This document shows positions 1 to 10,489 of a stretch of 64,000 bases of DNA, in pieces. The stretch comes from Alphaproteobacteria bacterium (lineage in GTDB: Bacteria > Pseudomonadota > Alphaproteobacteria > SP197), in the NCBI GenBank assembly GCA_964291265.2, contig OZ219747.1, positions 2,592,001 to 2,656,000 on the forward strand. The letters are read 5' to 3'. Every line of letters starts with the position of its first letter. Position 1 is the stretch's first letter. The position numbers and the translations under genes were made by a program. A model generated the notes under the pieces. It ran no database searches. It saw nothing but the letters and a program-made list of their open reading frames with translations, and had not been told where the DNA came from.

Positions 1-756
<756 letters not shown>

Positions 757-785
757 CCTTGCGAGTGAGCGAAGGAGACACCCTC

Positions 786-1076
786 ATGGCCCTCACCCCT
801 GCCGAGAAGCAGCGCCGTTATCGGGAACGCCGCAAGGCCGGCATCCCTGCCGTCCACCACCGAAAGCCCTGCGACCGTCGTTCCCGTGCGCAACGCTGGC
901 GCGATGCGGTGGCCGAGCTCGGTGCATTGCAGGAGCATTATCGAGACTGTCTCGACAGTCTTCCCGACTCCCTGCGCGACACGGCTTACGGAGAACGTCT
1001 GCAGATCATCGTCGAGGCCGACATCGAGGCTCTCGAGGAGATCGAACCGCCGCGCGGCTACGGACGGGACACATGA
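786..1076 (+). CDS. Accessory 96-aa basic protein inside IS110 (MALTPAEKQRRYRERRK...)
   Basis: RBS GAAGGAG at 771-777, ATG at 786; Arg-rich N-terminal helix; present in both IS110 copies. Confidence 0.7.
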   Translation: MALTPAEKQRRYRERRKAGIPAVHHRKPCDRRSRAQRWRDAVAELGALQEHYRDCLDSLPDSLRDTAYGERLQIIVEADIEALEEIEPPRGYGRDT

Positions 1077-1330
1077 CACCTGGAACCCCCTTGATCACGG
1101 TAACGTTACCATGCCCGGGGACGCTGGGCGGCAAGGTGGCCGCGCTCATCGGTAACGTTACCGTGATCAATGGACGGCAACTCGCTCATGCCGCCGGGAC
1201 GCATGACACCTGGAACTTCATCAAACACGGTAACGTTACCATGTCCGGGAACGCCGGCGGCAAAGCGACCGCACTCGCCGGTAACGTTACCATGATCAAT
1301 GGACAACAACCCGCCCATGCCGCCGGGACC
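1066..1330. repeat. Two ~130-bp tandem units with four GGTAACGTTACC palindromes (IS110 right region)
   Basis: Palindromes at 1099-1110, 1151-1162, 1229-1240 and 1280-1291; perfect 20-bp inverted repeat 1091-1110/1151-1170. Confidence 0.92.
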
Positions 1331-1459
1331 ACAAGCTGCATGTCGCCTCGCTCGCAGGACAAGAACATCGACAAGGCGGAACCCCAGACCGCTGTGGACA
1401 ACCACAGAAAACATCACCACGGACACCCGCAAAAAACCTTGCCGGGAAACATGGATGCT

Positions 1460-2633: not shown

Positions 2634-2769
2634 GTGTGCCAGCATCCATGTTTCCCGGCAAGGTTTTTTGCGGGTGTCCGTGGTGATGTTTTCTGTGGTT
2701 GTCCACAGCGGTCTGGGGTTCCGCCTTGTCGATGTTCTTGTCCTGCGAGCGAGGCGACATGCAGCTTGT

Positions 2770-3034
2770 GGTCCCGGCGGCATGGGCGGGTTGTTGTCCA
2801 TTGATCATGGTAACGTTACCGGCGAGTGCGGTCGCTTTGCCGCCGGCGTTCCCGGACATGGTAACGTTACCGTGTTTGATGAAGTTCCAGGTGTCATGCG
2901 TCCCGGCGGCATGAGCGAGTTGCCGTCCATTGATCACGGTAACGTTACCGATGAGCGCGGCCACCTTGCCGCCCAGCGTCCCCGGGCATGGTAACGTTAC
3001 CGTGATCAAGGGGGTTCCAGGTGTCATGTGTCCC
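2770..3034. repeat. Palindrome array of IS110 copy 2
   Basis: Mirror image of 1066-1330. Confidence 0.9.
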
Positions 3035-3314
3035 GTCCGTAGCCGCGCGGCGGTTCGATCTCCTCGAGAGCCTCGATGTCGGCCTCGACGATGATCTGCA
3101 GACGTTCTCCGTAAGCCGTGTCGCGCAGGGAGTCGGGAAGACTGTCGAGACAGTCTCGATAATGCTCCTGCAATGCACCGAGCTCGGCCACCGCATCGCG
3201 CCAGCGTTGCGCACGGGAACGACGGTCGCAGGGCTTTCGGTGGTGGACGGCAGGGATGCCGGCCTTGCGGCGTTCCCGATAACGGCGCTGCTTCTCGGCA
3301 GGGGTGAGGGCCAT
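3024..3314 (-). CDS. Accessory 96-aa protein inside IS110 copy 2
   Basis: Same as 786-1076. Confidence 0.7.
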   Translation of the reverse strand: MALTPAEKQRRYRERRKAGIPAVHHRKPCDRRSRAQRWRDAVAELGALQEHYRDCLDSLPDSLRDTAYGERLQIIVEADIEALEEIEPPRGYGRDT

Positions 3315-3343
3315 GAGGGTGTCTCCTTCGCTCACTCGCAAGG

Positions 3344-4495
<1,152 letters not shown>

Positions 4496-4958
4496 TCTCT
4501 GCAACCATAGACCGGGCCCTCTCCCACAGTCGGGGTTGTCCACATTTTCCCGCCGCCAACCGCTGTGGATGATTGCATCATCACGGGGACAAAACCTGGT
4601 CATATAAGGCGAACTGGCGGAAGGTAGGGGGTGAAAGTCCCCTGAAACGAAGGAGTAACCAAACCACGTTTCTCCGCGAGCCGTGCGTCGGTTCCCGCGA
4701 GGGGGCAGGCGAAGCGTCGGTAGCGGTACGGATGGGCAGGGCTAATGAGCACCGAAAAGTCCGTTGTTCGGGGTGCCGAGGCTTTCGCATCGGTCGAAGG
4801 CAACATCGCAGGCATCGATTTGGTGAGATGTCGGCGAGCCCCGCGGTGTCGGAGAACCCATGCACGTCCGCACGCCTTCTGTTGGGACCCTGGGAGGTCT
4901 TCGAACTATCCCGCCTGTCGTGGCGGGACCGTGTAGGGAAAGGAGAAAGCCGAAGCCT

Positions 4959-6446
4959 ATGAGGAACGGTTTGAAGAAGTCGGATGGGGCCGTAAGACCG
5001 GTGAAGGCGGCGAACAAGGGAGCGTCAGCTTCTGCGGAGTCGCTGGAGGAAAGGGCCTCAACCAAGGGGAATCCGGGACGCCAAAGCACGCACCGAACGC
5101 AGTGTCGGGCAAGTGTGCCACAGGCGGCGGACCGGATACGGGAAGCTGCAGAGAGGAACCCGAAGGAGCGTCTCACTGCACTCTTCCATCACATTACGCC
5201 GGACGCGCTCCGGGCGGCCTACTTCGGTTTGAAGAAGGAAGCCTCGGCAGGTGTCGACGGCGTGACGTGGGCGGCGTATGGCGAGGGTCTGGACGAGCGC
5301 TTGCTTGATCTGCACTCGCGCCTGCATCGTGGGGGAGCGTACCGGGCGCCGCCGGTTCGGCGGGTTGAGATACCCAAGCCGGACGGCGGGACACGACCGC
5401 TCGGGATTGCCGCACTGGAGGACAAGATCGTCCAGAAGGCGGTTGTGGATGTGATCCTGACACCGATTTATGAGGTGGAGTTCCTTGGCTTCAGCTACGG
5501 GTTCCGACCGGGCCGAGGGGCGCATGACGCTCTCGACGCCCTGGCGTTCGGGATCGAGCGGCGCAAGGTCAACTGGATAGTCGACGCGGACATTCAGGGG
5601 TACTTCGACACAATCCCGAGGGATTGGTTGATCAAGTTCCTGGAGCATCGCATTGGCGACAGGCGGGTGATCCGTCTGATCCGCAAGTGGCTGAACGCTG
5701 GCGTCATGACCGACGGATCATGGAGCGACACCGGTGCGGGCACGCCTCAGGGCGCCATTGTCAGCCCCTGCCTGGCGAACGTGTTTCTGCACTACGTGCT
5801 CGATCTGTGGTTTCACAAGGCATGGCGTCCGAAGGTTCCGAACGGTAAAGCGATCATTGTCCGCTACGCGGACGATATTGTGGTCGGGTTCCAGCATAAG
5901 CGGGATGCGGAGACATACCTTCGCGACGTTCGGGAGAGGCTGGACCGCTTTGGTCTCACCCTTCACCCGGACAAGACCCGTCTCGTTGAGTTTGGACGGT
6001 TTGCCAAGGCGAACCGGCGATCTCGCGGGGCGGGCAGGCCGGAGACGTTCGACTTCCTGGGCTTCACGCACTTCTGCACGGAGACCCGGAGAGGACGCTT
6101 CAGGCTTGGTCGCAAGCCGGTCGCAAAACGGGTCGCAAGGACCCTGGCGCGCATCGAGGAGGTGCTTCGCAATCGACGGCATCACGACATATGGGAGGTC
6201 GGCATGTGGCTTGGGCGAGTTGTCAATGGCTGGTCCAACTACTTCGCCGTTCCGGGGTCGACCCGATGGCTGCGCACGTTCCGCCAAAGGCTGCAACGCC
6301 TATGGCTGCGAGCGATCCGCCGCCGCTCCCAGCGCCACTGCTTTGACTGGAAGCGATTGGAGCGCATGACCGAGCTTCTTTGGCCGCGCGTCTCCATCCG
6401 CCACCCATGGCCGGACCAGCGGTTTACCGTCAAGCACCCGAGGTAG
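4959..6446 (+). CDS. ltrA: Group II intron reverse transcriptase/maturase (no endonuclease domain seen)
   Basis: GVDG, RPLGI, SYGFRPGR, GTPQG, YADD and FDFLGF motifs; start may be upstream. Confidence 0.95.
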   Translation: MRNGLKKSDGAVRPVKAANKGASASAESLEERASTKGNPGRQSTHRTQCRASVPQAADRIREAAERNPKERLTALFHHITPDALRAAYFGLKKEASAGVDGVTWAAYGEGLDERLLDLHSRLHRGGAYRAPPVRRVEIPKPDGGTRPLGIAALEDKIVQKAVVDVILTPIYEVEFLGFSYGFRPGRGAHDALDALAFGIERRKVNWIVDADIQGYFDTIPRDWLIKFLEHRIGDRRVIRLIRKWLNAGVMTDGSWSDTGAGTPQGAIVSPCLANVFLHYVLDLWFHKAWRPKVPNGKAIIVRYADDIVVGFQHKRDAETYLRDVRERLDRFGLTLHPDKTRLVEFGRFAKANRRSRGAGRPETFDFLGFTHFCTETRRGRFRLGRKPVAKRVARTLARIEEVLRNRRHHDIWEVGMWLGRVVNGWSNYFAVPGSTRWLRTFRQRLQRLWLRAIRRRSQRHCFDWKRLERMTELLWPRVSIRHPWPDQRFTVKHPR

Positions 6447-6518
6447 GAGCCGGATGGATTAACGTCCATGTCCGGATCTGTGCGGGGGGTGCGCAGCAAT
6501 GCGCATCCCTACCGCGAC

Positions 6519-7583: not shown

Positions 7584-10489
7584 CAGACGTCCTGACTTCG
7601 GAAAGCTGTCTTGGGTCTGACGGAGCCCTTTTCCACAGGGAAACCAAGGGTTTTCAGGGTTTGGTGGGCTTGACAAGTGAATCTGCTGTCGAGCAAGGTA
7701 CGCAACCCCACTTTCTTTCTCCAGGTGGCCCATGGACACGCTTCCCCTGTCCCCTCCCGAGGCGGTTCCGATCGGACATTCCTGCTTCTCGTTCGCCGAG
7801 AACGAACGCGGTCAGGTGGTCTATTTTTCGAACCTCGAACCTTACGACTTTCACGATGTGGACGATCGCGGCGCCTGGCTCCTGCGGGCGGCCCGCCTGG
7901 CCGAGAGCGGGGTGCGCCGAGCGGACATCCGGATGGCCTTCGGTCTCTCTCGCACGACCCTGCAGCGGTCGGTGAACCGATTGCGCGATGAGGGCGAGGC
8001 CGGCTTCCTGCAGTTCTGTCCGGTACGCGGGGTGAGCGCGATCACGGGGGAGATGAAGGAGCGTGCGACGCGTCTGCTGGCCGAGGGGATGAGCGGTGCG
8101 GCGGTGGCGCGGGAACTGGGGCTGTCGAAGGAGACGCTGAACTACAACCGCCGGCGCGGCCATCTTGCGCCCGCGGGTTCGGGGGACGGTGCTGCCGCTC
8201 GCGGACTTCGTCCGTGCCGCGAGGTCCCGGCGCTCTCGGCCGCGACGAAGGAGCAGGCTCTCGGTCTCCTGGCCGAGGGGAGGAGCGATGCGGCGGTGGC
8301 CCGTGCTCTGGGGCTGTCGAAGGAGATGTTGCAGGCCCACCGCCGGAAGGGGCATCTGCCTTCCGCGGGACCGGTTGGAGGCTCCGGCGTGTCCGGTGTC
8401 CGTCCGGGTGGGAGTGGCCGCGTGGTGATCACGCAGGAGATCCGCGAGGAAGCGGACCGTCTGCTGGCCGAGGGCAAGAGCGTGTCGGCGGCGGCCCGCG
8501 AACTCGGCGTGAACGCCGCGACCCTGAACTACCATCGCCGGAAGGGTTCGATCGGCGCGGCGCGGCCGGAGGCCGCGACTGCCGGGTCCGGCCCGGATGC
8601 ATCGGAGAAGCCCGATGGGCCGCAAGAAGTGTCCATGCCGGCCTGCGACACCGAGGTCTGCGGATCCCCGGCGCCGCGTCCGCTCGACCGCGCCGCCCGC
8701 GACGATCGGGACCGTTCGGCGCCGATGGGTCGCGGTGCGCGGGACGGCATGGGGCGGGTCGCGGCCGCAGTCGGAAAGTTGCCCGAGGCGCAGCCCCGGT
8801 TTGCCGAGGCCCTGTCGGCGGTGGCGCACGGCGGCGTGCTCGCGGCGCTGCCGGCGCTTCTCCGGGAGGGGCTGCTGAAGCACGCGCCCGCGTTCCTGTC
8901 ATTGCCGAAGGGGTACTACGGGGTGACGAGCATCCTGTTGCTGCAGGCCTTTCTCCTGCTGGCCCGGGTGCGGAACGCGGAGGCGCTACGCTACCAGTCC
9001 CCGGGGGAATGGGGCGCCATCCTGGGTCTGGACCGCTGTCCGGAGGTCAAGACGCTGCGGAGCAAGGTTCGCGCGCTGGCGGCGGATGCGGAACGGCTCA
9101 CGGCGTGGCAGGGCGCACTGGCGAGGGACTGGTGCGCGGAGGACCCGGAGGCGACCGCGACGCTGTCGGTCGACGGTCACGTGAAAGTGTATACCGGCCG
9201 CAAGGGGGTTAAGCCGAAGCACTTCGTGTCTCGTCAGAAGCTCTGCCTGCCGGCTTCGGTCAGCTCCTGGGTCCATGCGCTTGGCGGTCGGCCGCTGCTG
9301 TGCCTGCACAAGAACCTCGATCCCACCCTGACCCGCGCCCTGGAACGGGATGTTCTGCCGGCGCTGGAGGAGTTGGGCGTGGCGGGGCCGGATGCACCGG
9401 ATCTCACCACTGCCGACATGGCCGTGCCGGCCCTGACGCTGGTCTTCGACCGGGAGGGCTGGAGTCCGGCCCTGTTCCGTCGTCTCGCCCGGCGCGGGAT
9501 CGCGGTGATCACCTGGCACAAGAATTTCAAGGGCAAGGACTGGCCGGAAGAGGAGTTCTCCCTCGAGACGGTGCCGATTCACGGCCCCGGAGGCGATCGC
9601 ACGAGCAACATCTGGCTGGCCGAGAAGCGCATCCGCCTGCACGACGGTCCCGAGGTCCGGCAGATCCGCCGTCGGCTGAACGACGGCCGCCAGATCGCCC
9701 TGATCACCACGGACTTCCACCTGTCGCGGGCCCGGGTCGCGAGTGCCCTGTTCTCGCGATGGTCCCAGGAGAACTTCTTCAAGTACGCTCGGGAAGAATT
9801 CCACCTCGACTCCCTGCCGGTGCACAGTCTGGTCCCCCAGGATCCGGACGCACAGGTCATCAACCCGGACTGGCGCAACAGGGACCGCGAGCTGCGCCGC
9901 CGCCGGCAGGCACTCGGCACGCTCCGCAACCGGATCGCCGAACTGGAACGCAAGCCCGAACCCTCCAACGCAATCCTCCGGAAAGTCGGACAACTGCAGG
10001 CCGAGAAGGAGACACTCGAAGCCAGGATCAAGACCCTGCAACAAGAACGCAAGGAAACCCCGAAGTATGTCCGGGTCAAGGATCTCAGAGACGATCAAGC
10101 CCTCGATGCCCTGGCGTCCCGGGAGAGGCACTGGCTCGACATCCTGCGCATGATCGCCTACCGCGCCGAAACCCGGATGATGGCGGCCGTGGCCAGGGAG
10201 CAGGGCAAGAAACAGCGACCGCGAAGACACCTCCGCGCACTCCTGCAGGCCGACGCCGACATCCTCCCCGACCCCGAACGGGGCATCCTCCGGGTGCGCA
10301 TCCTCGGAACCGCATGCAACGCCAGCGATGACGCCATCGCAGGGCTGCTGCAGGAACTCAACGATACCCGCACACGCTTTCCAGGAACCGAACTCCGCAT
10401 GGTCTACGAACTGCCCGAGAAGCCCACCTGAACGGCCACCAAGGGTTCACACTTCTTGATCGCCAACACTCCCGAAGTCAGGACGTCTG
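7584..10489 (+). mobile_element. IS with 18-bp TIR and 5-bp TSD (unclassified, ISNCY-like DDE)
   Basis: TIR CAGACGTCCTGACTTCGG at both ends; TSD AGCAT at 7579-7583 and 10490-10494. Confidence 0.9.
7732..10431 (+). CDS. Large DDE transposase with three tandem HTH modules
   Basis: VDGH, VFDREG and RWSQENFFKY motifs; three LLAEGxS..ARxLG repeats; lies between the TIRs. Confidence 0.85.
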   Translation: MDTLPLSPPEAVPIGHSCFSFAENERGQVVYFSNLEPYDFHDVDDRGAWLLRAARLAESGVRRADIRMAFGLSRTTLQRSVNRLRDEGEAGFLQFCPVRGVSAITGEMKERATRLLAEGMSGAAVARELGLSKETLNYNRRRGHLAPAGSGDGAAARGLRPCREVPALSAATKEQALGLLAEGRSDAAVARALGLSKEMLQAHRRKGHLPSAGPVGGSGVSGVRPGGSGRVVITQEIREEADRLLAEGKSVSAAARELGVNAATLNYHRRKGSIGAARPEAATAGSGPDASEKPDGPQEVSMPACDTEVCGSPAPRPLDRAARDDRDRSAPMGRGARDGMGRVAAAVGKLPEAQPRFAEALSAVAHGGVLAALPALLREGLLKHAPAFLSLPKGYYGVTSILLLQAFLLLARVRNAEALRYQSPGEWGAILGLDRCPEVKTLRSKVRALAADAERLTAWQGALARDWCAEDPEATATLSVDGHVKVYTGRKGVKPKHFVSRQKLCLPASVSSWVHALGGRPLLCLHKNLDPTLTRALERDVLPALEELGVAGPDAPDLTTADMAVPALTLVFDREGWSPALFRRLARRGIAVITWHKNFKGKDWPEEEFSLETVPIHGPGGDRTSNIWLAEKRIRLHDGPEVRQIRRRLNDGRQIALITTDFHLSRARVASALFSRWSQENFFKYAREEFHLDSLPVHSLVPQDPDAQVINPDWRNRDRELRRRRQALGTLRNRIAELERKPEPSNAILRKVGQLQAEKETLEARIKTLQQERKETPKYVRVKDLRDDQALDALASRERHWLDILRMIAYRAETRMMAAVAREQGKKQRPRRHLRALLQADADILPDPERGILRVRILGTACNASDDAIAGLLQELNDTRTRFPGTELRMVYELPEKPT

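Follow-up and report, generated by a model that had tools for sequence, protein, structure and literature searches.

A conserved palindromic site beside a small passenger gene of IS110 and other mobile elements: candidate operators at the right end of an alphaproteobacterial IS110 element

The window analyzed here, 64,000 nucleotides (nt) of contig OZ219747.1 from an Alphaproteobacteria bacterium (assembly GCA_964291265.2, positions 2,592,001 to 2,656,000), opens inside an insertion sequence (IS) of the IS110 group. The 3′ part of its transposase gene lies at 1..756 on the forward strand (copy A; the element starts about 500 bp before the window) and is followed after 30 bp by ORF96 (P0001; 786..1076, forward strand), an open reading frame (ORF) for a 96-amino acid predicted DNA-binding protein with an N-terminal basic helix, AEKQRRYRER, and a C-terminal helical hairpin. 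Beyond ORF96 come four exact copies of the palindrome GGTAACGTTACC, at 1099..1110, 1151..1162, 1229..1240, and 1280..1291 (sites 1 to 4), their starts 52, 78, and 51 bp apart, and then the right end of the element (1439..1459, forward strand). A second four-site array, inverted, occupies 2809..3001 in element copy B (starts at 2809, 2860, 2938, and 2990, again exact matches), and the window holds eight matches to GGTAACGTTACC in all, against 0.02 expected from shuffles.

Copy B is a complete element of 1,968 bp from core to core (2641..4608, reverse strand), inserted inside the 5′ end of a group II intron. It carries its transposase gene (P0002, 315 amino acids) at 3344..4291, an ORF96 identical to that of copy A at 3024..3314, and, in the left end, a predicted bridge RNA with target and donor loops at 4298..4432, all on the reverse strand. 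P0002, to which the copy A transposase is identical, matches Pfam DEDD_Tnp_IS110 (PF01548, E = 4e-24; DEDD RuvC-like) and Transposase_20 (PF02371, E = 2e-17), as expected of the IS110 group. The genome holds four identical copies of the 1,968-bp element, each running from CT core to CT core with the transposase gene and ORF96 as its only genes. Their common right end consists of a −35-like TTGCCG (1439-1444), the left-donor motif ATGGATG (1451-1457), and the core CT (1458-1459); the same 12 letters are conserved at this end in five of five aligned relatives, and the end matches the donor guide of the bridge RNA. IS621-type IS110 elements encode a bridge RNA at their left end (Durrant et al., 2024, PMC11208160), and the window element resembles them in its DEDD transposase, its CT core, its left-end bridge RNA guides, and its putative junction-promoter layout. 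The donor guides match both the right end (ATGGATG, CT) and the left end (CT, TAT), so that a left-end bridge RNA with guides around the CT core, typical of the group, is present here. The right target guide agrees with 9 nt of flanking sequence in the three of four copies that are inserted in the group II intron, and the genome has 27 empty targets. In six related elements the target guides shift with the flanks, judged by eye over 8–9 nt in three, 5 nt in two, and 3 nt in one. Joining of the element ends (1439-1459 and 4600-4608) would give TTGCCG, 17 nt, and TATGAC, a −35/−10 pair as in IS621; the circle joint was not seen in the assembled contigs of three sequencing runs, a type of contig that drops rare forms. 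The palindromes had been placed in the right region of an IS110 element by an initial annotation of this DNA, and they do lie inside the right end of the 1,968-bp element. Because ORF96 and the array fall within the element ends, they are true cargo of the IS110 right end, and because the bridge RNA lies in the left end, no second RNA is needed at the right.

The array is built from two direct repeats, unit 1 (1066..1195, forward strand, 130 bp, with sites 1 and 2) and unit 2 (1196..1324, forward strand, 129 bp, with sites 3 and 4), which are 84–85% identical at a spacing of 129–130 bp; the coordinates bear out the initial description of two diverged units of about 130 bp, each with two perfect 12-bp palindromes 51–52 bp apart. 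Unit 1 also forms an inverted repeat (1088..1173; arms 1088-1110 and 1151-1173), an inverted duplication of a TTG-N5-palindrome block whose arms reach 23 nt at 96% identity, slightly longer than the 20 bp first reported. Between the two units none of 24 palindrome positions has changed, against 22 of 106 other columns (Fisher p = 0.007), and in a comparison of the array with a decayed copy elsewhere in the genome the figures are 0 of 48 and 59 of 558 (p = 0.006). A contig from a public sequencing run, possibly of the source sample, spans 2742-2981, a stretch that includes three of the four palindromes in copy B, and has zero differences. The claim that the palindromes are invariant while their spacers have diverged thus stands between the units but not in related IS110 elements, where sites vary at N positions or have decayed (for example, to GGTCACGTTACC and GGTCACGTGACC); the invariance is local.

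Among the related IS110 elements compared, four sites occur only in this genome. Unit 2, the tandem duplicate of unit 1, is absent from related elements in other genomes, and it is only here that the 130-bp unit has been doubled; relatives carry one or two sites. In single-site relatives one block, CCATTGA-N-palindrome, stands about 25 bp past the stop codon, IS110 relatives have the same block twice, inverted and 52 bp apart with one site often altered, and in one lineage (L009) the hairpin formed by the pair has been deleted and one site kept. The four sites appear to derive from a single ancestral site by an inverted duplication followed by the 130-bp tandem duplication; the count of four is not special, since a lineage-specific duplication produced it.

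These inverted repeats might instead act as a hairpin, of RNA at the 3′ end of the transposase–ORF96 transcript or of single-stranded DNA, or belong to a second IS110 non-coding RNA (ncRNA), which the initial annotation had offered as an alternative to operator-like sites for the adjacent protein. The region folds at z = −4.05 and single units at z = −2.5 to −5.5 in six of six cases, the hairpin would start 12 nt past the ORF96 stop codon, and pairing is kept at 109 of 143 outer-arm positions, with some double changes. A permutation test of this arm pairing (109 vs. 100.7 ± 3.2) was set aside, because its rows were related to one another and two or more of them stood in reverse orientation. 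Any inverted duplication folds well, however, and conservation in the arms is concentrated on TTG/CAA (12, 12, and 13 of 13), whereas positions 4 and 9, the two that vary, pair in only 6 of 13 units. Most homologues have a single 12-bp site with no long arm, the L009 lineage lost its hairpin yet retained a site, and the region contains no U-tract terminator and no Rfam match. The bridge RNA guides were found in the left end, with no separate scan of the right end for another set such as an IS1111-type right-end bridge RNA would have; the structured second ncRNA is not supported, and we regard a hairpin function of either kind as improbable.

A wider comparison ties the palindrome to ORF96. The family is large, with 1415 homologues, 2,182 profile matches among 50% clusters, and 873 clusters at 50% identity with E ≤ 1e-10. 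Loci were drawn from the best 79 of 260 genome matches and the best 79 of 347 metagenome matches, two sets that favour close relatives, together with 19 viral matches; near-copies were removed before counting, and 11 viral matches to the helix only were excluded from the site-association counts. The strict site GTNACGTNAC adjoins 47 of 50 non-redundant homologues, with 51 sites in 30 kb against 17 in 443 kb (44-fold), and in a second homologue set it stands beside 67 of 81 non-redundant loci, with 72 sites in 52 kb against 8 in 188 kb (33-fold). The check put forward in the initial annotation, a search for the motif near homologues of the gene, thus finds it at the great majority of loci, in homologues from several phyla, as would be expected of the operator of an autoregulated mobile-element repressor conserved beside its gene. 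The site is mostly single and lies just upstream, 84 of 103 upstream sites being found 7–23 bp before the first in-frame start codon. At these upstream sites a TTG occurs at −9 in 23 of 103 and a TA at +14 in 19 of 103, the register of a 17-bp sigma70 spacer.

Homologues are found on several kinds of mobile DNA. Sufficient upstream DNA was available at 124 of 138 loci, and at 87 of these 124 a transposase or recombinase gene lies within 1.5 kb upstream on the same strand: IstB at 46, IS110 at 25, IS3 at 7, a helix-turn-helix-bearing probable transposase (our label) at 4, a serine recombinase at 3, and IS66 at 2. The remainder comprises one replicase, two genes on the opposite strand, and 34 loci with no match (14 queries). 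Within 26 related IS110 loci from nine genomes, many of them within-genome copies, the site occurs in 20 of 22 that have the ORF and in none of the 4 that lack it, and in one IS110 copy (L374) ORF and site have been lost together. In the genome that contains the window, 24 of 27 occurrences of GGTNACGTNACC are near ORF96-like sequence; no wider regulon was found there, with 3 sites away from ORF96-like DNA against 5.0 expected. An ORF96 paralogue (76–79%) borne on an IS21-type element of 37 copies has a 14-bp site variant of its own, in 72 of 72 occurrences. This element (L386:4154-9480; 5.3 kb, about 37 copies) encodes IstA, IstB, a Toprim protein, the paralogue, and a partial duplicate of it, and the paralogue and the duplicate are each followed by the 14-bp site, in which the half-sites abut rather than overlap. 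As far as the compared sequences go, the palindromes belong with the ORF96 gene family and not with the transposase. At another locus (L022:5301-5344) a downstream site stands directly before a large serine recombinase gene, an arrangement that suggests how the downstream position may have originated and what a target gene might be.

ORF96 matches no Pfam family, including basic leucine zipper (bZIP) families, and has no match in a PDB sequence search or in PLSDB by tblastn; ESM Atlas returned unnamed clusters only, and PHROGs matches to the helix (phrog_10506, 9651, and 23279, which have no assigned function) were accompanied by few, weak matches elsewhere. In the structure model (predicted local distance difference test score 87) a basic helix at residues 5–18 is joined by a 15-residue linker to helices at 34–57, 61–64, 67–77, and 81–84, and fold searches returned generic helical hairpins only (best viral E = 0.044; the highest VIA Z was 6.3, with no match reaching 8). 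The ratio of nonsynonymous to synonymous substitution rates (dN/dS), 0.12–0.22 in six of six pairs, indicates purifying selection.

Residues of the basic helix covary with bases of the site. The family pattern is (N/P/G/D/S/H)xx(R/K)Qxx(Y/F/H/W)R, with proline at the Asn position in the window protein. Across 127 members of the family, Lys at residue 8 goes with an outer G in the site (59 of 64 half-sites) and Arg with an outer C (174 of 180), and one Arg form nested inside the Lys clade (L023) has a C-type site. In Arg forms the variable base also follows the residue three positions earlier: it is T in 81 of 88 half-sites of Asn forms, C in all 6 with His, G in 9 of 14 with Asp (at three or more places in a quick tree), and either C (16) or T (20) with Gly.

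What we take to be independent support for the pairing of helix and site comes from phage proteins that resemble ORF96 in the helix only. These loci were gathered by the helix alone, 2 of 96 proteins matching the rest of ORF96, and dinucleotide shuffles served as the background. Two sets of Arg-helix proteins show a 5.9- and a 7.1-fold excess of CGTNAC (38 of 38 distinct loci, from 44, and 50 of 51, from 68), the Lys helix goes with a 6.7-fold excess of GGTAAC (7 of 13 distinct loci, of 25) against 0.9-fold for Arg helices, and TGTAAC occurs 28 times against 2.9 with the RVRKHR helix (8 of 9 distinct loci, of 37); a charged-helix control pattern yielded just two loci (CGTNAC 4 vs. 2.7), too few to serve as a control. 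The flanking base of the phage GTNAC words accordingly differs with helix type between AE(R/K)Q..YR and RVRKHR loci. The words occupy all three reading frames (169, 175, and 48 in the largest set), as expected if selection acts on the DNA. On the viral contigs concerned (L178-L351) the proteins with either helix contain in-gene GTNAC arrays in linkers rich in VT, RD, or SN, and initiator-type Pfam domains (Phage_rep_org_N, DUF1376, and DnaT) are found in 10 of 40 helix-sharing proteins, chosen from 101. The in-gene arrays are likely to be origins inside initiator genes.

That the same words form arrays inside phage genes behind the same helix, a quarter of the 40 proteins with initiator-type domains, raises the idea that the window array is an iteron-like or recombination-accessory structure, such as a protein-bound loop or a plasmid origin remnant, rather than a transcription operator. 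The 51–52-bp spacing, close to five helical turns, would suit this, as would the occurrence of ORF96 homologues on small plasmid-like contigs together with a replicase, ParA, or relaxase (L011, L019, and L021). On those contigs and in most of the family, however, there is one site per promoter position, relatives manage with one or two sites, and the element has neither an initiator gene nor an AT-rich tract beside the repeats, as an origin would. Phage replisome organizers and initiators share the basic helix and GTNAC words, but there the words form tandem arrays inside the gene, while ORF96 has separate palindromes in non-coding DNA and lacks an initiator domain. An origin or accessory role is very unlikely, the least probable of the alternatives weighed here.

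We therefore favour the interpretation that the four palindromes are operators of the 96-amino acid passenger protein, to which we assign a probability of roughly 75%. Of the initial proposal that the adjacent protein binds them, the association has been upheld, by the motif beside homologues (47/50 and 67/81), by its absence from four of four ORF-less IS110 loci, and by its covariation with the helix, while binding itself is only predicted. Each GGTAACGTTACC is predicted to be the target of an ORF96 dimer, contacted by the N-terminal basic helix, and most members of the family would repress their own promoters. A half-site, CGTGACC, overlaps the transposase stop codon (752..758, forward strand) and is likely a remnant of the upstream operator of ORF96; a whole site, GGTAACGTGACC, stands at this place in two related loci (L373 and L377). 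In the IS110 lineage the gene may have become fused behind the transposase, its upstream site decaying to the half-site while downstream sites survived. The whole sites of the window lie downstream of ORF96, 180–360 bp inward of the right end and paired at a spacing of about five helical turns, and a promoter scan of 700-1700 found none. Protein bound there might form a roadblock or insulator against read-through transcription, or influence the promoter formed at the circle junction, which would drive the bridge RNA and the transposase, and in either case occupancy of the downstream sites could exert negative feedback on the element. A downstream effect of this kind, whether a transcription block at the right end or an action on the junction promoter, is possible but falls somewhat short of an even chance.

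Several observations weigh against the operator interpretation or limit it. A −35 TTG accompanies only 23 of the 103 upstream sites, and the strict site is absent from 17 of 131 homologues. The sites in the window keep the TTG with no recognizable −10, and their position downstream of the gene rules out promoter occlusion. Lys forms with Asn carry A (14 of 14) and not T, so the recognition code is not context-free; the Lys/Arg switch represents only two changes on the tree, possibly with one origin, and the residue-8 counts are therefore not independent evidence. The whole palindrome was found near none of eight non-redundant helix-only viral loci. Self-correction of palindromes could partly explain their invariance, and the binding, dimerization, and regulatory effect of ORF96 are predictions from sequence and a structure model. 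Finally, sites remain intact in dead, helix-less derivatives of the element. These derivatives (L384 and L385, at C2 2.535 Mb and 3.295 Mb) are internally deleted: a microhomology junction links about 30 bp of left end to a transposase fragment and an ORF96 without its helix, so that transposase, bridge RNA, and basic helix are gone and three or four intact sites are kept. Both sit behind a probable serine recombinase gene (labelled by eye). Their intact sites fit binding in trans but also palindrome self-correction.

The derivatives lend something to the argument that the sites, although true recognition sequences of the family, are functionless relics here, preserved by self-correction and recent copying. 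The −10 boxes beside the sites have decayed, the four element copies are identical, and in L001 and L008 two bases of the first site are mismatched. Against this, at least one strict site is retained in 20 of 22 related ORF-bearing IS110 loci whose transposases are 72–83% identical, most changes are at N positions, where variation is tolerated across the family, purifying selection acts on the ORF in these elements, and the genome of the dead derivatives has 4 + 37 intact genes able to supply the protein. Relic status is about as doubtful as the hairpin.

ORF96 and its sites would, on this evidence, constitute a small autoregulated regulator with operators on mobile DNA, a kind of system already known. 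Repressors of the KorA/KorC, CopG, and Cro type are small autoregulated plasmid or phage proteins with palindromic operators and a helix-turn-helix or ribbon-helix-helix fold. The ORF96 family likewise comprises small genes on mobile DNA with a putative operator over their own promoter; it differs in that the model has neither fold and in that the gene rides at the 3′ end of several IS families. A different likeness concerns recognition. The bZIP signature NxxAQxxFR of the fungal factor Pap1 reads the TTAC half-site of TTACGTAA (PMC7261193). As with the Pap1/Yap proteins described there, the short basic helix of the ORF96 family keeps Q, an aromatic residue, and R at the same spacing, and its palindrome is centred on ACGT, the Asn/Arg forms going with GTTACGTAAC. 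Unlike them, the ORF96 model has no leucine zipper, a linker and then a helical hairpin taking its place; R or K replaces Ala; and the window protein has Pro at the Asn position and GGTAACGTTACC as its site. With no sequence or fold match to solved structures, the resemblance is one of predicted mechanism and not of demonstrated homology: the helix is predicted to work like a bZIP basic region, and the protein is not classed as bZIP. A more ambitious synthesis would make ORF96 a bacterial transcription factor with a bZIP-like basic helix and a simple code, recruited independently together with its operator at the 3′ end of IS21, IS110, IS3, IS66, and serine-recombinase elements, the amplified, helically phased array providing feedback on bridge-RNA-guided transposition; as a whole this is tentative, and we consider it rather unlikely.

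No description of the ORF96 family or its site was found in the literature within scope, from which most subscription journals and supplements were excluded. Matches to GTAACGTTAC were unrelated, searches for GTTACGTAAC in the context of bacterial or plasmid palindromes and for helix peptides returned none, those on bZIP-like phage initiators or iterons and on bacterial bZIP operators yielded nothing relevant, and the accessible part of PMC7157519 has nothing on the motif. Cargo-bearing IS110 elements are already known (bioRxiv 10.64898/2026.08.14.744561), and the window element is likewise expanded with cargo; the main text of that preprint uses none of the terms “palindrom,” “regulator,” and “transcription factor.” Unlike IS621-type and cargo IS110 elements, its right end carries a conserved, regulator-like gene with palindromes. 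What is new is the site for an IS passenger family, the Lys/GGTAAC variant, and the placement of an array inside a bridge-RNA element. A widespread IS passenger family (the 873 clusters above) thereby gains a concrete predicted DNA target and a candidate recognition code, which points to a bacterial DNA-binding module acting like the basic region of eukaryotic bZIP factors. If ORF96 controls its host element, it would add a regulatory layer to IS110 bridge recombinases and to IS21, of which no account was found in the literature. The four-copy array is a local amplification, and the interest lies in the protein–site pair.

Other features of the region concern the surroundings of the element. 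Thirteen copies of a different multi-copy element contain a 57-bp near-copy of the IS110 left end, at 1592-1648 in the window. This other element apparently encodes a DNA-methylase-like protein (labelled by eye), and IS110 copy A has inserted into it about 190 bp from the near-copy. An element bounded by 59-bp terminal inverted repeats was considered and rejected, the 57-bp sequence being the native left end of the IS110 family and 1592-1648 a look-alike from the other element. The group II intron that has received three of the four IS110 copies, in its first few bases, itself lies within an IS66 transposase gene (window 2634-2642 and 4609-6518), and the 27 empty targets are ends of this intron; intron domains and a reverse transcriptase are found at 4634-6518 beside copy B, and the insertion point is at what we take, from the consensus, to be the intron 5′ end. 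Further along, 7732-10431 encodes an 899-amino acid Transposase_29 protein with several N-terminal helix-turn-helix repeats.
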